Shown: piece by piece, positions 1-8,943 of the stretch | How the letters are laid out: each line of letters begins with the position of its first letter | How positions within the stretch are numbered: position 1 is the first letter of the stretch | IMG/VR virus record: IMGVR_UViG_2563366853_000003 | Coordinates: 1 to 8,943 of that record | Source of the DNA: a virus | Taxonomy: Duplodnaviria; Heunggongvirae; Uroviricota; Caudoviricetes | Length of the DNA: 8,943 nt | Reading direction: 5' to 3' (one strand) | The notes under the pieces: generated by a model | The model's input: the letters and a program-made list of their open reading frames with translations, nothing else | Database searches by the model: none | What the model was told of the DNA's origin: nothing | Translations under genes and position numbers: made by a program

Positions 1-456
1 CGTGCGCTGCTGTTAAGCCGCAAGAATCCGTTTGGCGATATCAAATCGGATGGCACCGTGAAAACGGCTCTCGAAAACCTTGGTTTGGGAGAAGCGGCAA
101 AACGGGATGTGGGTAACGGGCAAAACCAAATTCCTGATATGTCAGCGTGGGAGTGTGGGGGAGATACAACGACGGGATGGAGACGAAGCCCGGATGGTTA
201 TATTGAACAATGGGGGCTAACTGAGGCCACAACAAATGAAGTTTTGATTAATTTTCCTATCCCATTTCCGACAGCCGTCATTTCTATTAATGAACATGAC
301 CAGGCTCCTGTGGCAGGGAAAATGTCAGTATGGCAATTCTATAAATTGACTAACTCAAATGTCATAGCAGAGAACCTGGGATCTCTTGATAAAGGAAATC
401 CATCCTTCAATGTTCCAACTGTCGCTGGTTGCCGCTGGTTTGCTACAGGAAGATAA
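1..456 (+). CDS. phage tail fiber protein, C-terminal part (5' end lies outside the window); variable host-range portion after the crossover site
   Basis: Frame 1 is open from base 1 to TAA at 454-456. Translation ...KNPFGDIKSDGTVKTALENLGLGE... resembles the constant/variable junction of Mu S / P1 S / e14 Stf type tail fibers. The crossover site at 68-93 lies in frame (GLGE). Confidence 0.8.
   Translation, partial: RALLLSRKNPFGDIKSDGTVKTALENLGLGEAAKRDVGNGQNQIPDMSAWECGGDTTTGWRRSPDGYIEQWGLTEATTNEVLINFPIPFPTAVISINEHDQAPVAGKMSVWQFYKLTNSNVIAENLGSLDKGNPSFNVPTVAGCRWFATGR
68..93. other. left crossover site for the DNA invertase (gix/hix/pix-like 26-bp imperfect palindrome)
   Basis: CTCTCGAAAACC-TT-GGTTTGGGAGAA. 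The inner half GGTTTGGGAGAA is the exact reverse complement of TTCTCCCAAACC at 1940-1951. The A-rich ...AAAACC TT GGTTT... core is as in Hin/Gin sites. Confidence 0.6.
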
Positions 457-457
457 A

Positions 458-898
458 ATGAGTAAATATCTTTACGATGCAAAAACTAATATGTTTTACC
501 CATTTACTCTGGAAAGTCAGTATAAGGAGTCTGGGTTATGGCCTCATAATGGAGTTGAAGTTGATGAGGATATATTTATTAAGTACCTGTCCCCACCTCC
601 AGGGAAGGTGAGAGTTGCGGGTGATGATGGCTATCCTGCATGGGATGACGTACCGCCGCTAACTCATGAAGAACAACTGTCAGAAGCGGAACGAAAAAAA
701 CAGGCACTCATAAATCGAGTTAATGAATATATTAACAGTAAGCAGTGGCCAGGAAAGGCTGCTATTGGTCGTCTGAAAGGTGAGGAGCTGGCGCAATATA
801 ATTCATGGCTTGATTATCTGGACGCACTGGAAATGGTTGATATTTCCAGTGCTCCAGATATTGAATGGCCTACGCCTCCGGCAGTTCAGGCCAGATGA
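458..898 (+). CDS. tail fiber assembly protein (Tfa chaperone), active-orientation copy
   Basis: ATG at 458, 1 nt after the tail-fiber stop, with SD GGAAG at 448-452. Product MSKYLYDAKTNMFYPF... ends with the conserved Tfa C-terminus (...APDIEWPTPP...). The longer ORF from 386 overlaps the tail-fiber gene and is not the start. Confidence 0.8.
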   Translation: MSKYLYDAKTNMFYPFTLESQYKESGLWPHNGVEVDEDIFIKYLSPPPGKVRVAGDDGYPAWDDVPPLTHEEQLSEAERKKQALINRVNEYINSKQWPGKAAIGRLKGEELAQYNSWLDYLDALEMVDISSAPDIEWPTPPAVQAR

Positions 899-1472
899 CG
901 TCCGGCGCGGTGCTGGTATCTGTTGCCGTCACCGCGTCAATGTAATCCAGCACAGCGTTAAGTCTGGTTGTTTCTGCCTGCGTCGGTTTACGTCCGGCCT
1001 GCAATTTCAGTTGAATCAGACTGATGGAAGCCATTGCTGCATCAATCAGTGACTGGCGCTGTGCTTCTGCCGCTTCTACTGCGGCACCGTGTTGTGCCTC
1101 AGTATCTGTCACCCATTTTTCACCATCCCATTTATCGTATGGCGTTAACGGGGCGATAGTGGTTGTATTTTCGGGATAGTCGCCTAGTGCTGTGATTTCT
1201 TTGGCATCTCCCGTTTCGGTGTTATAGACGATTTCACCGCGATGGTCTGACACATATTCCCATGATTTTAAATCCACAGAACGGCAAATTGTATAACCAG
1301 CCTTAGATGTACCAGGAGCGTCTAAACAGGAATATGCTGGAATACCGACACCCACTGCAAGATATTCAGTTGATGCAGAAATATATTCCCGCGTCTCACC
1401 ATCATAGTTATAGACGGTAATATTCCCCGCCTTCGTGGTAATAAGCTCGCTATTTAATACGGCGTTATCCAT
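870..1472 (-). CDS. tail fiber assembly protein, alternate copy (Tfa') in the invertible segment
   Basis: 200-aa ORF MDNAVLNSELITTKAGN... with the Tfa-like C-terminus ...APDVIWPELPEA. Its 3' end overlaps the + strand tfa 3' end by 29 bp (870-898). Start overlaps the upstream stop (TAATG) and has a GAGGG SD. Confidence 0.8.
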   Translation of the reverse strand: MDNAVLNSELITTKAGNITVYNYDGETREYISASTEYLAVGVGIPAYSCLDAPGTSKAGYTICRSVDLKSWEYVSDHRGEIVYNTETGDAKEITALGDYPENTTTIAPLTPYDKWDGEKWVTDTEAQHGAAVEAAEAQRQSLIDAAMASISLIQLKLQAGRKPTQAETTRLNAVLDYIDAVTATDTSTAPDVIWPELPEA

Positions 1473-1953
1473 TATGCAGCCCTCACGATATAGTTAAATG
1501 CAATATTTCGTGGACGGGTTTCACTCCCGCCAGTATTACCGATACTCCCTCGTGAATGAAGTGTCGGTGATGGGATCAGACTTCCTCCGGCAGCGGCAGC
1601 ATCAAGCCCCCTGCCTTGCGTATATGCTCTTCTGAAGATTGTCGCCAGTTCCCATTCCTCTTTTGAGTCATACCCATCGTTGGCGACAACAGGATGACGG
1701 TGCTTTTCCAGCATTCCGGCCTGAATACTCAATAAAACACGTCCTGCATCAATACCGCGCCCGTCATCCCAGCCACGAATAAACTCACCGCGTAAATCAG
1801 GTAATTTATTTGTTGGATAAGCCTTTGCCAGTTCCGGGTATTCTTCAGCAGAAAATGCCGCACCGTTGCATTTCAGCCAGCCTGTTGGCGGTGTGGCTGA
1901 AGGCCATGGAACAGGCACACCAACAGGTAATGCAGAGCCTTCTCCCAAACCAA
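1472..1953 (-). CDS. alternative tail-fiber C-terminal variable segment (no start codon of its own; would be fused to the constant part after inversion)
   Basis: Open frame on - runs from the right crossover site (codons GLGE encoded by 1940-1951, in frame) to the stop at 1472-1474. Sequence ...GSALPVGVPVPWPSATPPTGWLKCNGAAFSAEEYPELAKAY... is typical of a tail-fiber receptor-binding tip. The ORF-track start MMPFAC is read-through into the site. Confidence 0.65.
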
Positions 1954-1965
1954 CGTTTATGAAAA
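1940..1965. other. right crossover site for the DNA invertase
   Basis: TTCTCCCAAACC-AA-CGTTTATGAAAA, inverted relative to the site at 68-93 and sharing a perfect 12-bp half. Confidence 0.6.
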
Positions 1966-2019
1966 TGAAGAAATAACAAGCAAATGGCATCATTCCTGCT
2001 TTTACCAGGGGGAATTAAC

Positions 2020-2574
2020 ATGCTTATTGGCTATGTACGTGTATCAACAAATGACCAGAATACCGATCTACAACGTAATGCGCTGAACTGTGCAGGATGT
2101 GAGCTGATTTTTGAAGACAAGATAAGCGGTACAAAGTCCGACAGACCAGGACTGAAAAAGCTGCTCAGGACATTATCGGCAGGTGACACGCTGGTGGTCT
2201 GGAAACTGGACCGACTGGGGCGCAGTATGCGGCATCTTGTCGTGCTGGTGGAGGAGTTGCGCGAACGAGGCATCAACTTTCGTAGTCTGACGGATTCAAT
2301 TGATACCAGTACCCCAATGGGGCGCTTTTTCTTTCATGTGATGGGTGCCCTGGCTGAAATGGAGCGTGAACTGATTGTTGAACGAACAAAAGCTGGACTG
2401 GAAGCTGCTCGCGCACAGGGACGAATTGGTGGACGTCGCCCCAAACTTACACCAGAACAATGGGAGCAGGCCGGACGATTAATTGCAGCAGGAATTCCTC
2501 GCCAGAAGGTAGCGATCATCTATGATGTTGGTGTATCGACACTGTATAAGATGTTTCCGGTCGGAGATAAATGA
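2020..2574 (+). CDS. serine DNA invertase, Pin/Gin/Cin/Hin family
   Basis: ATG at 2020 with SD GGGGGAA at 2008-2014. Product MLIGYVRVSTNDQNTDLQRNAL...GDTLVVWKLDRLGRSM...GINFRSLTDSIDT...MGRFFFHVMGALAEMERELI...GRIGGRRPKL... matches the resolvase/invertase catalytic domain (active-site Ser in YVRVST) and C-terminal HTH. The ORF-track start at 1984 is upstream of the SD-linked ATG. Confidence 0.9.
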   Translation: MLIGYVRVSTNDQNTDLQRNALNCAGCELIFEDKISGTKSDRPGLKKLLRTLSAGDTLVVWKLDRLGRSMRHLVVLVEELRERGINFRSLTDSIDTSTPMGRFFFHVMGALAEMERELIVERTKAGLEAARAQGRIGGRRPKLTPEQWEQAGRLIAAGIPRQKVAIIYDVGVSTLYKMFPVGDK

Positions 2575-2576
2575 AA

Positions 2577-2610
2577 CCGCAGGCTCGTCGTATGCAAGAT
2601 CGTGCTGCGG
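2577..2610. repeat. 34-bp dyad-symmetric repeat, copy A (possible bidirectional terminator between the convergent invertase and GIY-YIG genes)
   Basis: CCGCAGGCTCGTCGTATGCAAGATCGTGCTGCGG. Arms CCGCAG / CTGCGG are flanked by T-rich sequence on both strands. By eye about 28/34 identical to copies at 3598-3631 and 6268-6301. Confidence 0.45.
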
Positions 2611-2632
2611 TTTATGCTTATCACTTAAAGAC

Positions 2633-3502
<870 letters not shown>

Positions 3503-3597
3503 CTAATCCTTTGAATTTACATAGTAAAAAAAGATACTTTTCCTCATAGTGTGAGCTAATTTTATGTTTCGTTTGATGATCGGACCGGTCTCAAAAA

Positions 3598-3675
3598 CCG
3601 CAGGCACGTTGTATGCAAGAACGTGCTGTGGCTGGCTGGTGAACTTCCAATAGTGCGAATATTGAATGATGTCCA
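3598..3675. repeat. repeat copy B (34-bp core plus about 45-bp extension shared with copy C)
   Basis: Core CCGCAGGCACGTTGTATGCAAGAACGTGCTGTGG. The extension GCTGGCTGGTGAACTTCCAATAGTGCGAATATTGAATGATGTCCA aligns without gaps to 6301-6345 with about 7 mismatches. Confidence 0.5.
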
Positions 3676-3794
3676 GCCGTTACCGTTTTTACGTGTTTAT
3701 TAGTGAACAAACCACTCGTCAGCAGACTCCTAGGTATGAACAAAAGTTTTAGCTGAAACTCTATCTGTGGTGCGCGTAACAGAAGTGTAATAAA

Positions 3795-3813
3795 AGGCCC
3801 TAGAAAAGGGCCT
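3795..3813 (-). terminator. putative Rho-independent terminator (- strand)
   Basis: Perfect 7-bp stem AGGCCCT / AGGGCCT with a 5-nt loop, followed on the - strand by TTTATTA. Sits 15 bp downstream of the small ORF stop. Confidence 0.5.
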
Positions 3814-3827
3814 AAGATTAGCAAAGA

Positions 3828-3971
3828 TTATCCTCGATACTTAGAGGCAGGAATTTTGATAGGAAAGGCTGCCAAGCCTTTTTGACGAGCAAAGATCCGT
3901 TTACCTTTGACCGTAATAAAAGGACGGTAAATTGTGATGTATTCCTCAGATACAGCTTTTTCAATGGTCAT
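3828..3971 (-). CDS. small hypothetical protein (47 aa)
   Basis: ATG at 3971 to TAA at 3828-3830: MTIEKAVSEEYITIYRPFITVKGKRIFARQKGLAAFPIKIPASKYRG. Followed by the hairpin terminator. Below the ORF-track size cutoff; SD is weak (AGGT). Confidence 0.35.
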   Translation of the reverse strand: MTIEKAVSEEYITIYRPFITVKGKRIFARQKGLAAFPIKIPASKYRG

Positions 3972-3997
3972 ATCGTGTTACCTGTAAAGTTTCGCTG

Positions 3998-4025
3998 TTG
4001 ACAAAACCTAAGGTAAGCGTATACT
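3998..4025 (+). promoter_or_regulatory. sigma70-type promoter (-35 TTGACA, 16-bp spacer, -10 TATACT)
   Basis: Consensus -35 at 3998-4003 and near-consensus -10 at 4020-4025. No protein-coding ORF with a start follows; a terminator lies about 45 bp downstream. Confidence 0.5.
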
Positions 4026-4031
4026 CACAAC

Positions 4032-4094
4032 CGCCAAGTTTTTCGTATTTGCTTACGATAGGAGAAGCCAGCGACAGCGGTTCGCTGGCTTTTT
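4032..4094 (+). ncRNA. candidate small RNA (about 60-65 nt) between promoter and terminator, convergent with the ImmA-like gene 3' end
   Basis: Delimited by the 3998-4025 promoter and the 4067-4094 intrinsic terminator. No start codon in the interval. Confidence 0.3.
4067..4094 (+). terminator. Rho-independent terminator (+ strand)
   Basis: Stem GCCAGCGA / TCGCTGGC (8 bp) with a 7-nt loop, followed by TTTTT. Ends 2 bp before the ImmA-like stop codon on the opposite strand. Confidence 0.55.
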
Positions 4095-4096
4095 CG

Positions 4097-4630
4097 TTAT
4101 CTTTTTGCATTTTTTCTCATCCAAGTTTCAGCCGCTTGTTGACTGACACCAAATGTTTTGCTTATATCTTCAACAGTCATTGTGGGCAAAACTAGTCTTG
4201 AGTCAATTAAGAAGTGGCTTGCAAAAACATCTGCTTGCCATTCGCTGTCTTCATAGATTTTATGCCCTCCACTAGTCTTATTACGTGCATAGATACTTTG
4301 ATTGCGATGCATGACTAAATGACCAAGTTCATGCGCAACAGTGAATCTCGCATGGTTCTCACCATTGCACACTGCATCGTAAACAGATCGCTGTAAAACA
4401 ATTTTGTTCTTATCTGGATAAGTCACTGCATAGCGTTTGGGCAGTTCATGATCTTCAACAATTTCTAGCTCAATGCTTTCTGAGGCCATAAGACCTTCTA
4501 GTAATACATCCAGTCTCAGATATGTGTGATTTGATATCTGAAGAACGTCTCTCAGACGATGAGCGTATGATTTAATCATGCTGGTGCTGAGAGGTGAAAC
4601 GCGATGGCCAAGTTCTCGTTTCGCAATCAT
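4097..4630 (-). CDS. ImmA/IrrE-family Zn-metallopeptidase (HEXXH; COG2856-like)
   Basis: 177 aa with the HEXXH motif (HELGHLVMH) and downstream ...SEWQADVFASHFL.... Its ATG sits 3 nt after the stop of the upstream XRE gene, so the two are likely cotranscribed. Confidence 0.8.
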   Translation of the reverse strand: MIAKRELGHRVSPLSTSMIKSYAHRLRDVLQISNHTYLRLDVLLEGLMASESIELEIVEDHELPKRYAVTYPDKNKIVLQRSVYDAVCNGENHARFTVAHELGHLVMHRNQSIYARNKTSGGHKIYEDSEWQADVFASHFLIDSRLVLPTMTVEDISKTFGVSQQAAETWMRKNAKR

Positions 4631-4633
4631 TAT

Positions 4634-4984
4634 TCAGTCCTTTAACATTTTATTAAGCTTATCGAGTTGCTCTGGACTCAGGTCCTTAAATTTACGAGCA
4701 AAAACAAGCATTAGTTCTTTGTTCTGCTCATTTGCATCCGACATATCAACCTTAATGGACGGTTGAGAAATCTCTGCCTGTTTCTTGAGATTGATGATGT
4801 CTTGTCCGCTAAGCTCAAAAGTTGTTGCAATCGTATTTACTAATGAGTCCGGTATAGCTCTTTTGCCTAATTCAATGGCGGATAAGTAAGCCGAACTAAC
4901 GCCTAACAGATCAGCCATATTTTTGAGCACCATACCCCGGTCTATTCTCATTTTTCTGAGAGTCTTACCAAAGCTAGTTACCAT
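4634..4984 (-). CDS. XRE-family helix-turn-helix transcriptional regulator
   Basis: Start ATG at 4984 preceded by a perfect SD AGGAGG with a 6-nt spacer. HTH_XRE signature LRKMRIDRGMVLKNMADLLGVSSAYLSAIELGKR. The ORF-track start at 5011 is a GTG upstream of the SD. Confidence 0.8.
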   Translation of the reverse strand: MVTSFGKTLRKMRIDRGMVLKNMADLLGVSSAYLSAIELGKRAIPDSLVNTIATTFELSGQDIINLKKQAEISQPSIKVDMSDANEQNKELMLVFARKFKDLSPEQLDKLNKMLKD

Positions 4985-5010
4985 GTTGCGCCTCCTACAA
5001 TCCATGCTCA

Positions 5011-5039
5011 CTTATACTAAAAACCAAACTCAAGATCAA
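5011..5039 (-). promoter_or_regulatory. putative sigma70 promoter for the XRE/ImmA operon (-35 TTGATC, 17-bp spacer, -10 TATAAG)
   Basis: Hexamers read on the - strand, placed about 20-30 nt upstream of the XRE SD. Confidence 0.4.
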
Positions 5040-5266
5040 CAAAAATTGTAGAATTTTTTAATCTCAGCGTGTGATGACAATCTACATAAAATCATGAAAT
5101 GGTGCAAGGCGTAACTTAAAAAATACCATATGTAGTGTCAATTTTATGTGCTGTATGGATATATGGGGTTGGTAAACTTTTGCTCTTTTGTGCTCCTCAG
5201 CTATATGGTTGTTTGATTTTTGAACATCTTGTGGAACATAAATTGGGTTTATGCTTTTCCCTTTCG

Positions 5267-5294
5267 GTGACAACATGTTTATAGGATGTATAAT
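5267..5294 (+). promoter_or_regulatory. putative sigma70 promoter for the Bro-N gene (-35 GTGACA, 16-bp spacer, -10 TATAAT)
   Basis: Perfect -10 hexamer at 5289-5294, followed by SD AGGAGG at 5305-5310 and GTG start at 5318. Confidence 0.5.
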
Positions 5295-5317
5295 CCATAA
5301 AAAAAGGAGGGGATGGC

Positions 5318-6079
5318 GTGCAAAAGAATTTGTTACAATTATGCTACGAAGGAGAGTGTGGAGAAAATTATATCCGTAGCATGAATGAAAAAGGGCAGAT
5401 TTTTGTTTCACTTTCAGATGTGCTAAGAACGCTTTCTGCTGAGAACAGAAAACTGGATGGAAAGACTTCTCAAAGCTTGCTCACTGTAATAAGAGCGGTA
5501 ATAAAAACTTTAGATCCAGATGAGTTTAGGAATGTTTCTCTTGTCGTGGATGGTGAAACTATCTCTGAGGTATTTCTTACTGAACCAGGTCTATATAGAG
5601 TACTTGCTCAGGATACTACTGCTGCGGGGAAAAAATTCCAACGCTGGCTTTTTCATCAGGTCCTTCCGTCTATTCGTGAATTTGGTGTATATCCTCCGCC
5701 ACCTAAGCAAGAACGTTCAGAACTGAGTGCTTTTGCTAACAGTCTGCAGCAGACGGTTCAAGCATTGGTAATGGAAATAGAAAAACGTGAAGAGTTAGAA
5801 AGTAGAGTAAACCAAGTTGAACTAAAAGTTAACTCGTTAGAAAGTTTAAGAGATTTGTCTCAGTTCAGAAGTGTTCCTCAACGATTGATGGAGTTAGGTT
5901 TGGATACCTATTCGGTTGAGGAGCTTTGGCAATGGTGTGAAAAATTGCGTAGTGAACGTGGAGCAGAAAGAATTAAGTGCCCCTCCGGATTGAATATAAA
6001 TTCTTGCTATCCATTAGCTTTGGTTGATGAAGCTATCGCTATATACCAGAAAGTAGTTGAGGCAAGAACACGTCAGTGA
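5318..6079 (+). CDS. Bro-N domain protein (phage antirepressor-like) with a predicted coiled-coil C-terminal region
   Basis: GTG start 7 nt after SD AGGAGG. The N-terminal half (...IFVSLSDVLRTL...GLYRVLAQDTTAAGKKFQRWLFHQVLPSIREFGVY) matches the Bro-N signature; the C-terminal half is heptad-like (EIEKREELESRVNQVELKVNSLESL). Confidence 0.75.
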   Translation: MQKNLLQLCYEGECGENYIRSMNEKGQIFVSLSDVLRTLSAENRKLDGKTSQSLLTVIRAVIKTLDPDEFRNVSLVVDGETISEVFLTEPGLYRVLAQDTTAAGKKFQRWLFHQVLPSIREFGVYPPPPKQERSELSAFANSLQQTVQALVMEIEKREELESRVNQVELKVNSLESLRDLSQFRSVPQRLMELGLDTYSVEELWQWCEKLRSERGAERIKCPSGLNINSCYPLALVDEAIAIYQKVVEARTRQ

Positions 6080-6088
6080 GCTTGAGGG

Positions 6089-6118
6089 AAAAAAAAGCCC
6101 GCATAAGCGGGCTTTTTT
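6089..6118 (+). terminator. strong Rho-independent terminator (bidirectional shape)
   Basis: AAAAAAAA-GCCCGC-ATAA-GCGGGC-TTTTTT, starting 10 bp after the Bro-N stop. Confidence 0.8.
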
Positions 6119-6243
6119 ATCACTCGGGAGCTGCGGCTCCTTTGCGTATCCTTTTTTGTCTCCTCACCGTCTGGTCGGTGTCCTGCTGAGACTGCTAACA
6201 TCCTGTTTTTGTTGGTGTTGTCCTTACACCGTCCAATCATGAT

Positions 6244-6271
6244 TGGTGGAGCTGGCGGGAGTTGAACCCGC
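6244..6271 (-). other. ssrA (tmRNA) 3'-end fragment, att-site-like scar
   Basis: Reverse complement reads GCGGGTTCAACTCCCGCCAGCTCCACCA (T-arm, acceptor 3' strand, CCA), which I recall as the terminal 28 nt of enterobacterial tmRNA. No upstream tmRNA body is present. Confidence 0.55.
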
Positions 6272-6345
6272 TGACACGTCGTATGCAAGAACTTGCTGCG
6301 GCTGGATGGTGGACTTTCGATAGTGCGAGTATTGAATGATTTCCA
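6268..6345. repeat. repeat copy C (34-bp core plus about 45-bp extension), directly abutting the ssrA fragment
   Basis: Core CCGCTGACACGTCGTATGCAAGAACTTGCTGCGG, then GCTGGATGGTGGACTTTCGATAGTGCGAGTATTGAATGATTTCCA. Overlaps the ssrA fragment by 4 nt. Confidence 0.5.
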
Positions 6346-6764
6346 TCTATTATAGATTTTACCGTATTTCGGCATGAATGAAACTGAATATCCTCCCACC
6401 GACCCTCCATGACTTTACACCACTGTCTCTGGGGCTGCTATGTGCCAAAAGCGGACATAACGACACGTTAGTTAGAAATCTCAAGACCAATTAGGTTGGA
6501 TACTTACATGTATACTATTGCCTAACGATACTACCCTATCAACCTCATGGTTTATAGGCGGGGGTGAGAGCCAATCGAACGCTATCGTACGTTTTTATGC
6601 TGTCTACCCTAGACCCCAAGTAGACATGAATCTTACCTGATTTCCATACGAGGGCGACGTTGATCATCCAGCTTTAGTGCGAGCACTGAACTTAACATTT
6701 ACCAGCAATAGTGATATTTTCTACAAAGAAAAATATATGGAATAACGTCATCGCGGGTACAAAA

Positions 6765-7757
6765 ATGACTATAAAAAAAACATATGTAACACCAACAGAA
6801 ATAGTGAAATATTTTTATGACAAACCGGAAAACGATAACGTAAAAGAGAGAAAAACAATTGAGAGCCTGACCCGTCTCAAACCTGAGTGGGAAAATACTC
6901 TCGATATGATGAAGTTAATACGCAATTGTGAAAAGCTAGCAACTGAAGGTATTTTAATGGAATTGTCTTCAGGACATACTCTTTTTGACCGTTGCTATTT
7001 CGCACCGAATTTCAATGAATCAGATGCGAAATATGGAAAGTATGATTTTATAGCTGATGGATTTGAGTCAATCATAGACCGCCTTAGTCCTTCCGTTTTA
7101 CCTGTTGTTGTTGAAAAAAGTGATGGTTCACATGATCTTGGTACTAGTTTTATTGTTGGGAATAACCACACGATATTTACAGCCAGACATGTTATTGAAG
7201 ACATGAAGAGTATCAGGATACTTAGAGCTGGTGGTGAGGCTTTACCAATACATAAAATCTTTGTATCTAACGATGAACGTATTGATATCGCTTTAGTTTT
7301 CACAACCATTCCGAATGAAGATAATATTCAACCACTTAAGGTCTCAACCAAAGCCTCGGTACTGGATGAAATTTTATCAATAGGATTTCCACCCATTCCA
7401 GGATTTGATGCATTAAAGTTATATGACGTTTCGCATATAAATTCGTTTGTCCGACTGTCAAAGGGGCGAATTGTTGGTTCTGGTCACTCTTACTTAGATT
7501 CACAAGACTTTTTATTATTCAATGCTAGGGTTAAGGGGGGGAATAGCGGTGGCCCTATAATTAACAAATACGGCCTTGTTGTTGGTATGCTTGTACAAAT
7601 ACCAATATCATCTGAGGACAGTTCAAAGATTGATAACCTTGGATATGGTATAGCTGTAACAGGAAAAAGCCTGCTGGATGCCATTACATTTACAGAAAAT
7701 GGCCGCGAATTAACACTCACCGACCGAGGAAATGGAGAATATTCAACTCTAGCATAA
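6765..7757 (+). CDS. trypsin-like (chymotrypsin-fold) serine protease with N-terminal domain of unknown function; no signal peptide
   Basis: Catalytic triad in order: His in FTARHVIED, Asp in DIALV, Ser in GGNSGGPI. The first ~115 aa have no recognisable motif and no hydrophobic leader. Start is uncertain: ATG 6765 chosen, GTG 6711 is the alternative; both have a weak SD. Confidence 0.7.
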   Translation: MTIKKTYVTPTEIVKYFYDKPENDNVKERKTIESLTRLKPEWENTLDMMKLIRNCEKLATEGILMELSSGHTLFDRCYFAPNFNESDAKYGKYDFIADGFESIIDRLSPSVLPVVVEKSDGSHDLGTSFIVGNNHTIFTARHVIEDMKSIRILRAGGEALPIHKIFVSNDERIDIALVFTTIPNEDNIQPLKVSTKASVLDEILSIGFPPIPGFDALKLYDVSHINSFVRLSKGRIVGSGHSYLDSQDFLLFNARVKGGNSGGPIINKYGLVVGMLVQIPISSEDSSKIDNLGYGIAVTGKSLLDAITFTENGRELTLTDRGNGEYSTLA

Positions 7758-8404
7758 ATGATATTATTAATTAAGTTGTACTAACTCAGTTTAAATGAAT
7801 CAAGCATCCCCGTAACTTTGCCTGAAAAGGCTCATCGAGGGATGCACATTGTACGGATGTGTGAAAACTAAATCGGCTTTGTCACTTGGATTCGAGGGGA
7901 AAACTGAACTGAAAGCGATAAAAACGTCTAAAAAATCGTTTCGCAGACAGATGCACCCGATTCAAGCCATTTTGAGGAAGACTTTCTGCCTTTTATATTT
8001 ATATTAATCATAAGGTTATTCCATTGGTGTACGATATCGTGCTTTGCCCCTCATCTCCCAGATAACTAATTAGCCTTAAAATTACTCATGTGTTTCTGCC
8101 GGTTAAAATTATATGGTTTTCATTTACAATAGTCTCAAGTCCGCTCTTCGCTCATAACAGACATTCACTACAGTTATGGTAGAAGATATGCATGCTGGGT
8201 GGGGAAAGTATGAAGGAAAAGAAGGCTGCTGTGTCGTTTGACATCACTGCAATCTTCTTATTGGTTATGCGGGTCGTAGTGGGACAAAACTGAGACACAT
8301 AAGGCCTAGCAATGGCTTGCAAGGCTTTACATGTTTTGATGTGGTGGGACTTGTGAGCGCAGTGTTGATAGGGTAATGCTTTGAATTAGAAGCGGATTCT
8401 TATA

Positions 8405-8450
8405 ATTCGTAATGCGAAGGTCGTAGGTTCGACTCCTATTATCGGCACCA
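8405..8450 (+). other. tRNA-Thr 3' fragment (anticodon loop to CCA), att-site-like direct-repeat remnant
   Basis: ATTCGTAATGCGAAGGTCGTAGGTTCGACTCCTATTATCGGCACCA has a T-arm and acceptor 3' strand plus CCA, with anticodon CGT in the loop. The preceding sequence does not form the 5' half of a tRNA. The match to a tRNA-Thr (thrW-like) is from memory. Confidence 0.65.
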
Positions 8451-8604
8451 TTCTAACGTCTCCCCAAGTCTACTCAAGTATTTAAAAACCTCTTATAATC
8501 AGTATATTAATGCCCCTTTTAGTCTTTTGACGTCTATTTAAGTACCCCAAACTCTACAAGCAATTGAGGGGATTTGCTGTTCAGTTTAGTGGAGATACCC
8601 CCAA

Positions 8605-8943
8605 GTGAAACTCAATGCCCGTCAAATAGACACTGCCAAGCCAAAAGAGAAGGCTTACAAGTTGGCTGATGGTGGTGGTCTGTACCTCCTGGTAAAACCT
8701 GGTGGAGGAGAATATTGGCGTCTCAAGTATCGTGTAGCTGGTAAAGAGAAGCTGTTAGCACTAGGTGTGTATCCTGAGGTCACCTTAGCTGATGCTCCTG
8801 CAAAACTTGAAGAAGCTAAAAGAGGTATCTCTGGGGGAATCGATCTGATGGAAGTGAAGCGAGAGGAAAAGATTGCCCGGGAAACGCAGTTAAACAACAC
8901 CTTCAAAGATATTGCCCTTGAGTGGCACAGTAACAAATTATAA
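8605..8943 (+). CDS. P4-type tyrosine integrase, N-terminal arm-binding domain only (112 aa; likely truncated or pseudogene)
   Basis: MKLNARQIDTAKPKEKAYKLADGGGLYLLVKPGGGEYWRLKYRVAGKEKLLALGVYPEVTLADA... is the characteristic N-terminus of P4-like integrases. In-frame TAA at 8941-8943 cuts the protein before the catalytic domain. The gene lies immediately downstream of the tRNA fragment. Confidence 0.75.
   Translation: MKLNARQIDTAKPKEKAYKLADGGGLYLLVKPGGGEYWRLKYRVAGKEKLLALGVYPEVTLADAPAKLEEAKRGISGGIDLMEVKREEKIARETQLNNTFKDIALEWHSNKL

Follow-up and report, generated by a model that had tools for sequence, protein, structure and literature searches.

A probable orthologue of the e14 P-segment inversion switch at the tail-fibre locus of an SfII/SfV-like prophage

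Invertible fibre segments and the locus studied

Inversion of the P segment of the Escherichia coli K-12 element e14, whose genes lie in the order ymfQ-stfP-tfaP / tfaE-stfE / pinE, has been seen by whole-genome sequencing and PCR (PMC4272514), and by qPCR for both PinE and PinQ, at the repeat TTGGTTTGGGAGAAGG (PMC12529663). Related switches include the G segment of phage Mu, turned by Gin and laid out as Sc, site, Sv-U, U'-Sv', site and invertase, and the C segment of P1 and P7, turned by Cin, in which the invertase gene is on the opposite side of the segment and the cin stop codon overlaps cixL. Plasmid p15B (Min) has several sites and many arrangements. The Hin system behind flagellar phase variation in Salmonella (H segment) employs the same enzyme family and 26-bp sites, one of them roughly 100 bp away from a Fis enhancer.

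The DNA analysed here, referred to as the window, is the whole of an 8,943-nucleotide stretch (positions 1 to 8,943 of IMG/VR record IMGVR_UViG_2563366853_000003). It derives from an SfII/SfV-like prophage with a Mu-type tail. The switch occupies the end of the tail-gene block, with genes for baseplate J/gp47 and YmfQ (Mu gp48-like) directly upstream, in the order ymfQ-stf-tfa/tfa-tip-pin; the fibre gene is 3' of the baseplate genes and each tip is followed by its Caudo_TAP chaperone. The features of the locus are listed below.

1–79, plus strand: 3' end of the stf constant stem, frame 1 open from base 1
68–93, no strand assigned: left site pixL, 26 bp, CTCTCGAAAACC-TT-GGTTTGGGAGAA, crossover dinucleotide 80–81, in frame inside stf
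82–456, plus strand: tip 1, variable C-terminus expressed in the window state, about 124 aa; Gp53-like_C (PF21882), E 4.5e-12
458–898, plus strand: tfa1, tip 1 chaperone, 146 aa; Pfam Caudo_TAP (PF02413), E 2.7e-34
870–1472, minus strand: tfa2, tip 2 chaperone, 200 aa; Pfam Caudo_TAP (PF02413), E 5.5e-32
1472–1951, minus strand: tip 2, silent cassette, about 159 aa; Pfam Collar, E 1.2e-15
1940–1965, no strand assigned: right site pixR, 26 bp, reverse complement TTTTCATAAACG-TT-GGTTTGGGAGAA, crossover dinucleotide 1952–1953
1966–1993, minus strand: short open leader lying beyond the segment (MMPFACYFFIFINV), sharing its frame with the tip that occupies the right side in either orientation
2020–2574, plus strand: pin, serine DNA invertase, 184 aa; Pfam Resolvase and HTH_7
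2038–2109, no strand assigned: putative recombinational (Fis) enhancer homologue in the 5' end of pin, aligned to the P1 cin enhancer
2576–2612, plus strand: terminator-like hairpin followed by TTT, directly after the pin stop codon

The locus is very probably a Fis- and enhancer-type inversion switch of the Hin/Gin/Cin/Pin kind, orthologous to the e14 P segment. Gene order and strands are the same in e14, both 26-bp sites are identical to those of the window, and the constant stem is nearly so (95% DNA identity between window 1–103 and stfP). In tip 2, the proximal part of the collar and the final residues are also common to the two elements; tfa2 is 86.5% identical to TfaE, the C-terminal 78 aa of tfa1 are 67% identical to TfaP, and positions 1720–2575 have 93% DNA identity to K-12 overall. 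By contrast, no DNA similarity links window 104–723 (tip 1 and the N-terminal half of tfa1) to K-12 stfP, or 1523–1719 (the middle of tip 2) to e14, and the 63–66% identity between the tip proteins of K-12 and of the window is owed to their shared stem and collar parts. Judged from these alignments, the tips of the window are allelic tips in an orthologous switch. The segment measures about 1.87 kb here and 1797 bp in K-12. The head and tail genes upstream are all present here, whereas e14 is a remnant; pin is adjoined downstream by the defence gene PD-T4-3 rather than mcrA, and the chromosomal location is near yagU/ecp instead of icd.

Mu has the same layout, its Gin is about 80% identical to Pin, its gix sites lie inside the fibre gene and encode NLGLxE, and an enhancer homologue is likewise found in the 5' end of the invertase gene; but the Mu segment is about 3 kb, with tips that are longer than and unrelated to those of the window, and the gix sites are mutually identical with a central TC, whereas the two sites of the window have a TT centre and unlike outer half-sites. 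Cin of P1 and P7 is about 83% identical to Pin, and cixL (..ATCCTAAACC-TT-GGTTTAAGAGAA) has the same central TT as the window, in a C segment of about 4.2 kb. pixL and pixR have the AAACC-NN-GGTTT core of Mu gix and P1 cix, and, unlike p15B, the window has no more than these two sites. Fis-contact residues are conserved between Hin and Pin and the mechanism would be the same, but Hin flips a promoter and its gene sits inside its own segment, while the switch described here exchanges coding cassettes, with pin lying outside the segment. The Shigella phages SfII, SfI, SfIV and SfV match the head and tail genes at 97–98% DNA identity through the fibre stem and the left site, but their fibre is fixed: they have one tip and one tfa, the site occurs once, and an invertase gene is absent.

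Recombination sites, cassettes and invertase

The earlier note on this DNA proposed inverted 26-bp sites at 68–93 and 1940–1965 that share an identical 12-bp half and both encode GLGE in frame, and each of these points stands. When pixR is reverse-complemented, 21 of the 26 positions match pixL; the right-site registers 1938–1963 and 1939–1964 were dropped, this figure being reached only by 1940–1965. The two copies are in inverted orientation, and the inner half-sites and central TT dinucleotide are identical while the outer half-sites differ. The longest identity is in fact greater than the proposed half-site, amounting to 15 nt (80–94 against 1939–1953) with the central TT included, and a repeat finder returned arms of 20 nt at 75–94 and 1939–1958 that are 95% complementary. 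Reading the frames through both sites gives ...ENLGLGEAAKRD on the left and ...INVGLGEGSALPVG on the right, with pixL encoding LENLGLGE in the stf frame.

Each strand of the window contains one exact copy of the 14-mer TTGGTTTGGGAGAA. No third copy was found in the window at up to 3 mismatches, though at this tolerance shuffled sequences give 1.19 expected matches, so that the comparison is uninformative; the evidence for the sites is instead the pair of exact copies together with the K-12 identity. Our own arithmetic puts the chance expectation of an exact 15-nt inverted pair in 8.9 kb at about 0.04, and a chance origin is in any case no longer an issue because both sites equal those of K-12 e14 base for base.

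The stf gene begins 210 nt upstream of the window (RefSeq CDS 19791–20456 of L001 in MIN10), and for this reason the window alone cannot prove that the whole fibre gene is intact; its constant part runs to about 96 aa up to the crossover. Weak structural relatives of tip 1 are the R2-pyocin fibre (6cl6/6ct8) and 4mtm. Tip 2, which is joined to the stem solely after inversion, has a phage tail collar domain with a divergent part distal to it, and matches the T4 gp37 tip (2xgf) with E 7.5e-18. The tips had been described as unrelated in sequence, and indeed BLASTP between them gave no match at E<=1e-3 and they fall into different Pfam families (Gp53-like_C and Collar). From this divergence, they may bind different receptors. 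The convergent overlap of the tfa genes at their 3' ends, on opposite strands at 870–898, was likewise recovered; it is 29 nt long and is the same in the RefSeq annotation and in K-12 tfaP/tfaE. A search of NCBIfam returned nothing for the fibre or Tfa proteins, and its recombinase matches were all below threshold.

On the right, the leader and tip 2 form an open reading frame at 1472–1993, with a RefSeq CDS start at 1990, and it is because the leader is open in frame with the silent tip that the latter is annotated as a free-standing CDS. As evidence of a separate gene the leader was rejected: it is open for only 22 codons, for which our own arithmetic gives a chance expectation of about 1 in 3; its AGGA (Shine-Dalgarno-like) abuts the ATG, which is poor spacing; and its counterpart in Mu, a GeneMark CDS, extends past the G boundary to an unrelated GTG. 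The free-standing CDS named 'phage tail protein' or 'gp53-like', in either orientation, is an ORF-calling artefact. The inversion itself is absent from the annotation of the locus.

The invertase gene is already named pinE in RefSeq. A mechanical ORF start at 1984 was dropped in favour of the true start, the ATG at 2020 (MLIGYVRVST...). The product matches Pfam Resolvase with E 1.3e-51 as well as HTH_7, is 96.7% identical to K-12 PinE (517 of 555 positions in the DNA), and aligns end to end with the Gin structures 3uj3 (E 8.9e-95) and 4m6f (E about 1e-94). The catalytic serine motif previously pointed out is retained, as Ser9 in VRVSTNDQ. Met114 is the wild-type residue, where the crystallised Gin chains carry Val. 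The residues of Hin that contact Fis and the enhancer, and that are found only in invertases, are Gln151/Arg154/Leu155 and the basic residues 47/48/51 (PMC3798978); with the register taken from the match to 1hcr and the residue roles from that paper, they are present in Pin as Gln150/Arg153/Leu154 and Lys46/Lys47/Arg50. Neither pin nor the sites carry a disabling change when compared with K-12 and the Gin structures.

The putative enhancer was mapped through the P1 record (cin nt +19 to +90) and the 'putative enhancer' of P7 (cin nt +19 to +86). In an alignment of pin, pinE, cin and gin, window 2038–2109 is identical to the P1 enhancer at 56 of 72 positions, and it contains two nearly invariant G-N13-C blocks (2041–2055 and 2090–2104), 49 bp apart, of which the proximal one is 95.5 bp from the centre of pixR. 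This conservation and the annotation of the P1 record suggest putative Fis sites in the 5' end of pin. Immediately beyond the gene, the hairpin at 2576–2612 (fold −20.9 kcal/mol, z −2.8) marks the end of the switch module and the start of unrelated cargo; DNA similarity to K-12 e14 stops at 2575. A simple sigma-70 scan detected no promoter for pin or the fibre operon within 1–2750, sigma-70 and terminator scans gave nothing useful near pin or the sites, and tRNA and Rfam scans of the window gave no matches.

Both orientations in public genomes

The segment does invert. A search for both orientations, suggested in the earlier note, located each of them in public assemblies. Inversion of the window in silico at 80–81/1952–1953 yields a sequence that aligns with E. 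coli strain A32 in one piece, all 8943 nt at 100.000% identity, in agreement with the proposal that inversion would cleanly swap the tip together with its Tfa. The first 2700 nt of the flipped sequence are also present in EC6622, W12-1 and PEC422, end to end, in one piece and at 100.0% when rounded, with bit scores slightly under that of A32; the unflipped orientation is that of strains A22 and MIN10. Altogether the complete genomes number six; they are independent, span four continents and several hosts, and divide 2 versus 4 in orientation with base-perfect junctions, every assembly having a single orientation per genome. The inversion product (...ENLGLGEGSALPVG...) is in frame and open to a stop, and RefSeq annotates the predicted fusion in A32 as a 256-aa fibre followed by a 200-aa Tfa. 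The exact fusion proteins occur in public collections on 13 contigs for tip 1 and on 48 for tip 2.

A22 and A32 constitute a natural near-identical pair distinguished by the flip. Their prophage has a 14-bp deletion in its major capsid gene, and its flanks match the window; because the flanks and the capsid frameshift are common to both strains, the flip between them must be recent. The description of the locus as apparently intact consequently holds for the switch but not necessarily for the prophage, given this deletion in the A22/A32 lineage, in which host-range switching may go on without a phage to act on. The capsid gene of MIN10 is intact.

The working of the switch is proposed to be as follows. 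The fixed N-terminal stem of the fibre would be transcribed from upstream, with its coding sequence running into the left site, beyond which two convergent cassettes, each a variable tip with its own Tfa, lie between the sites. By homology with Hin and Gin, Pin dimers would bind both sites, and these would assemble with the enhancer in the 5' part of pin, itself occupied by Fis. Using Ser9, Pin would then cut both sites at the central TT, rotate one half through 180 degrees and religate. Because the sites have the same inner half and the same central dinucleotide, and GLGE is encoded in both, either tip 1, as in the window, or tip 2 would be fused in frame to the stem, with the matching tfa on the same transcript, leaving the other cassette with no stem and, as far as is visible, no promoter. 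The expected outcome would be mixed phage progeny with two adsorption specificities. That the Pin of the window catalyses the inversion is likely from the analysis of its residues and relatives.

Competing readings and significance

Could the switch be a fossil, the orientations in the databases reflecting rare homologous recombination between the repeats, or assembly error? Each assembly has a single orientation, and the many annotated frameshifts in A22 and A32 suggest sequencing noise. Yet the six genomes are independent and their junctions base-perfect, pin and the sites have no disabling change relative to K-12 and the Gin structures, and the sites share just 15 nt of identity. RecA-dependent recombination needs identity well above this length. 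Moreover, inversion of the identical locus has been measured in cultures of K-12 (PMC4272514; PMC12529663), and we regard a fossil as highly improbable. There is a somewhat better, though still poor, chance that the sites are real but that another invertase of the Pin/Gin family turns the segment in trans. One member of the family can stand in for another: PinQ, from prophage Qin and 38% identical to PinE, is the more efficient of the two at inverting the e14 segment (PMC12529663). Such enzymes are also present in many E. coli prophages, a close homologue of Pin being found in 115 phage records. Against this, the Pin of the window is full length and, at its high identity to PinE, resembles an enzyme that is itself an inverter of the segment; deletion of pinE lowers e14 inversion (PMC12529663), and every catalytic and Fis-contact residue checked is present. 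Inversion in trans is compatible with the explanation preferred here and does not exclude it.

A different question is whether the switch flips but now serves the host, through a free tip, translated from the leader at 1990/1993, that blocks other phages at the cell surface; in a defective prophage, inversion would alter the tip joined to that leader. For e14, Kirigo et al. 2025 (PMC12529663) report that T2 adsorption is blocked by StfE2, a product of inversion made up of the stfE leader and the stfP tip. The same leader, (M)MPFACYFFIFINVGLGE, is present in the window; the capsid gene of A22 and A32 is frameshifted, yet their switch is intact and flipped between them; and PD-T4-3 adjoins pin. 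However, the Gp53-like tip that would be freed (104–456) has no DNA similarity to the stfP tip, and hence the phenotype seen in K-12 cannot be carried over. The overall identity of 1720–2575 to K-12 accounts for the conserved leader, and the unrelated GTG in Mu indicates that the leader is not a feature of the family. Its 22 codons, open by chance about once in three, the AGGA abutting the ATG, the lack of a promoter in the sigma-70 scan and the intact capsid gene of MIN10 also argue against such a role. We therefore consider service to the host unlikely, and it is marginally more doubtful still that, in a lineage whose prophage would no longer make capsids because of the 14-bp deletion, the host retains the switch to its own benefit, with a leader-translated free tip masking a surface receptor as claimed for StfE2. 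If this were true, the host-kept switch and the PD-T4-3 gene would form part of a defence hotspot.

The inversion switch orthologous to the e14 P segment thus remains the preferred reading. As such it is already known and ordinary: the earlier note gave a correct reading of what is a textbook system, and its value as a discovery is small. What the comparison with K-12 e14 adds is that the receptor-binding parts have been exchanged between fixed joints, namely the GLGE site, the collar and the tfa 3' ends, with the switch machinery unchanged.

The invertible segment and its recombination sites

The tail-fibre locus comprises the fixed N-terminal stem of the fibre gene stf, two alternative C-terminal tips each with its own assembly gene (tfa1 for tip 1, tfa2 for tip 2), and a serine DNA invertase, Pin:

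1-456, frame 1, open from base 1: stem and tip 1, the C-terminus matching Pfam Gp53-like_C
458-898, + strand: tfa1, 146-aa ORF, Pfam Caudo_TAP (tail-fibre assembly protein)
870-1472, - strand: tfa2, 200-aa ORF, Pfam Caudo_TAP (tail-fibre assembly protein)
1472-1993, - strand: tip 2, 173-aa ORF, Pfam Phage tail collar domain
2020-2574: pin invertase ORF, real start ATG at 2020 (MLIGYVRVSTNDQ...), stop at 2574, Pfam Resolvase and HTH_7

Reading of the ORFs led to correction of the invertase start to 2020. The ORF coordinates give the two tfa genes a shared 29 nt at 870-898, the overlap that the earlier note had described, and its view that the two tips are unrelated in sequence also holds, since BLASTP finds no match between them. 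In genome records the stem-less, promoterless tip (window 1472-1993, -) is annotated as a separate CDS, as it is at 21472-21990 of the MIN10 sequence (L001), at 21577-21993 of the A32 sequence (L003) and at 2376-3362 of phage Mu (L009). This CDS crosses the recombination site and takes the first start codon beyond the segment, as does Mup52 of Mu, and its product is called either 'phage tail protein' or 'gp53-like' depending on the orientation; the inversion itself is absent from the annotation of the E. coli records.

The left site, at 68-93, reads CTCTCGAAAACC-TT-GGTTTGGGAGAA, and the reverse complement of the right site, at 1940-1965, reads TTTTCATAAACG-TT-GGTTTGGGAGAA. These are the inverted 26-bp sites proposed earlier, and testing of neighbouring registers showed the proposed coordinates to be right, with 21 of the 26 positions in agreement. 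The inner half-site is identical in the two, as had been claimed for a 12-bp half, but the identity is longer, extending over 15 nt to take in the central TT and one more base. Exactly two copies of the 14-mer TTGGTTTGGGAGAA are present in the window, one on each strand, and allowing three mismatches brings up no third. Both sites encode GLGE in frame (...ENLGLGEAAKRD on the left, ...INVGLGEGSALPVG on the right). Because the sites, the frames, the tfa overlap and the tip comparison all checked out, every element of the earlier observation is confirmed, and its interpretation as an inversion switch is supported.

Tip 2 aligns with the T4 gp37 receptor-binding tip (2xgf, E 7.5e-18) and is about 58-60% identical to the side fibres of HK97 and P2-like phages. 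Among solved structures, tip 1 has no more than weak matches, to the R2-pyocin fibre and to 4mtm (E ~1e-3 to 1e-2), and the phage collection contains no close relative. It is a reasonable inference that the two tips bind different receptors.

Both orientations in public genomes

The DNA is E. coli chromosomal sequence; strain A22 aligns with the entire window, interrupted by one gap, and strain MIN10 aligns with bases 1-8452. When the segment was inverted in silico, with exchange at the central dinucleotides 80-81 and 1952-1953, the flipped stem read ...KTALENLGLGEGSALPVGVPVPWPS... through to a stop with the 200-aa tfa directly after it, which is the clean in-frame swap of tip and Tfa that had been predicted. 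The flipped window aligned to strain A32 at 100.000% identity over all 8943 bases in a single alignment, and its first 2700 bases were matched end to end, in one piece each, in EC6622, W12-1 and PEC422, while A22 and MIN10 carry the unflipped form. The two orientations that the earlier note had proposed to look for are thus found, in public assemblies rather than in reads. The source of A22 and of A32 is Australian marsupial faeces, and the two chromosomes are about 400 bp apart in length; the switch is oriented oppositely in them, yet its flanking genes are the same and the capsid gene has the same frameshift in both. The 256-aa fusion predicted from the inversion is annotated by RefSeq in A32. 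Looked up by exact sequence, the fusion protein of stem and tip 1 occurs on 13 contigs and that of stem and tip 2 on 48.

Pin, its putative enhancer and the probable mechanism of inversion

The catalytic Ser that the invertase was said to retain is present as Ser9 in a 181-residue alignment with Mu Gin structures (E ~1e-94); position 114 is Met in Pin and Val in the crystallised Gin chains. The residues of Hin specific to Fis/enhancer-dependent invertases are Gln151, Arg154, Leu155 and basic residues at 47, 48 and 51 (McLean et al., PMC3798978), and their counterparts in Pin are Gln150, Arg153, Leu154, Lys46, Lys47 and Arg50. The Cin enhancer is annotated in the P1 record at cin nucleotides +19 to +90, and the P7 record places a "putative enhancer" at cin +19 to +86. 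Alignment with pin, pinE and gin places the P1 enhancer at window 2038-2109, with 56 of 72 positions agreeing with the P1 sequence. The ends of this homologue (GTATCAACAAATGAC at 2041-2055 and GTGCAGGATGTGAGC at 2090-2104) are almost invariant across all five genes aligned, wobble positions included; both are 15-mers of the form G-N13-C, with 49 bp between their centres, and the distance from the nearer block to the right-site centre is 95.5 bp. The Hin enhancer is a 65-bp element with a Fis site at each end, about 100 bp from a hix site (PMC3798978), and the geometry of the putative enhancer at 2038-2109 fits that description. The Mu and P1 sites likewise have an AAACC-NN-GGTTT core, lie within the fibre gene and encode NLGLxE, and the overall layout in Mu is the same.

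By analogy, the mechanism is most likely that of the Hin/Gin/Cin/Pin family. Pin dimers bound at both sites would be captured by the Fis-bound enhancer at a supercoil branch, Ser9 would cut at the central TT, and one half would turn through 180 degrees before the ends were religated; religation would be possible only once the segment is inverted, because the central dinucleotides match in the inverted alignment. Expression would then be set by position, only the stem-adjacent cassette being read.

Six genomes divided two to four between the orientations, with perfect junctions, are difficult to explain by a fossil switch or by an assembly artefact. It is plausible that another invertase flips the segment in trans, which is compatible with inversion by Pin. 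A host-side role has also been suggested, in which free tip protein would be made from a short leader at 1993/1990. Work on e14, a cryptic prophage of K-12, points that way (PMC12529663), but nothing in this locus supports it: the leader is open for just 22 codons, its ribosome-binding-site spacing is poor, a simple sigma-70 scan of 1-2750 found no promoter, the tip to be freed is unrelated to that of K-12, and the Mu counterpart is an unrelated GTG-initiated extension. Pin-dependent exchange of fibre tips remains the preferred reading.

Prophage context and relation to the e14 P segment

In MIN10 the switch lies at the end of a complete head and tail gene set. The MIN10 head and tail genes share 97-98% DNA identity with those of Shigella phages SfII, SfI, SfIV and SfV, whose tails are Mu-type. 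These phages have one tip, one copy of the site and no invertase, so the invertible module is an addition to this phage type. The single crossover-sequence copy of SfII, which has no invertase, lies inside the fibre gene at L005 1767-1780. In the partial genome of vB_EcoM-689R6 (L006 23623-23636) a truncated fibre gene is followed by mcrA and an invertase on the opposite strand, a rearranged or deleted form of the module. On the right flank, only A22 and A32 match the window all the way to its end. The major capsid gene, outside the window, is intact in MIN10; in A32 it has lost 14 bp between short direct repeats (CCAGACTG; L003 ~7740 versus L001 ~7760 in MIN10), and the A22 annotation shows the same frameshift. 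The description "apparently intact" therefore stands for the switch, but the phage of the window's lineage is probably not intact.

Directly after pin lies a GIY-YIG (LEM-3-like) gene (2633-3409, -) with a full-length match to PD-T4-3, an anti-phage system of a single gene (PADLOC, E 2.4e-140). In K-12 e14 the restriction gene mcrA occupies this position, which looks like an exchangeable defence-gene site. Further cargo genes with Pfam or PADLOC matches lie at 4097-5011 (-), 5318-6079 (+) and 6765-7757 (+). The cargo includes an ImmA/IrrE metallopeptidase and XRE-type HTH pair with CapP/CapH-like matches (PADLOC), followed by a divergent BRO-N protein and an S1 (trypsin-like) peptidase whose protease domain is similar to those of LmuA-, HamA- and RT-protease-type defence proteins; these genes may serve regulation or defence as cargo carried at the end of the prophage. 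The BRO-N gene is immediately followed by a 19-nt inverted repeat at 6084-6125 (GAGGGAAAAAAAAGCCCGC / GCGGGCTTTTTTATCACTC) that resembles a terminator acting in both directions. A second kind of repeat, 37 to ~126 nt long and beginning with a hairpin, is found directly after the pin stop (2574-2610) and where gene blocks of the cargo meet at two other places (3595-3692 and 6265-6362), with a further chromosomal copy between ykgJ and ecpE (L001 36755-36880). It matches no Rfam family or tRNA, and 5409 of 5426 E. coli genomes have similar sequence, with a median of 3 locations per genome, most of them lacking annotation. At the right edge, 8605-8943 (+) encodes the N-terminal portion of a P4-type integrase whose gene is cut off by the end of the window. 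The annotations of A22 and A32 list it as a truncated 'Arm DNA-binding domain' pseudogene, after which come a MarR regulator and the vat autotransporter toxin island. Homology of MIN10 to the window ends earlier, at an ISVsa5 insertion.

The e14 prophage of K-12 MG1655 shares the gene arrangement of this locus, in the order ymfQ, stfP (ycfK), tfaP, then tfaE and stfE on the opposite strand, then pinE. Its tfaP/tfaE overlap is also 29 nt, each of its 26-bp sites is identical to its counterpart in the window, and its stem is nearly identical; PinE is 96.7% identical to Pin in protein sequence and TfaE 86.5% identical to the tfa2 product. Both orientations of the e14 segment have been found in clonal MG1655-derived cultures by sequencing and PCR (Goldberg et al., PMC4272514). 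Kirigo et al. (PMC12529663) mapped the inversion to the repeat TTGGTTTGGGAGAAGG, quantified it by qPCR with PinE and with PinQ, and found inverted copies in 33% of 562 genomes. The similarity of the window to K-12 in DNA sequence is mosaic:

1-103: stem and left site, 95% DNA identity
104-723: tip 1 and first half of tfa1, no DNA similarity to e14
724-1522: rest of tfa1, tfa2 and end of tip 2, 87% DNA identity
1523-1719: middle of tip 2, no DNA similarity to e14
1720-2575: collar part of tip 2, right site and pin, 93% DNA identity

This pattern, together with the identical sites, indicates that the switch is orthologous and that the receptor-binding parts are different alleles. The system is already known, RefSeq naming the invertase pinE: it is the P segment of e14 and its Pin invertase, with different tip alleles.
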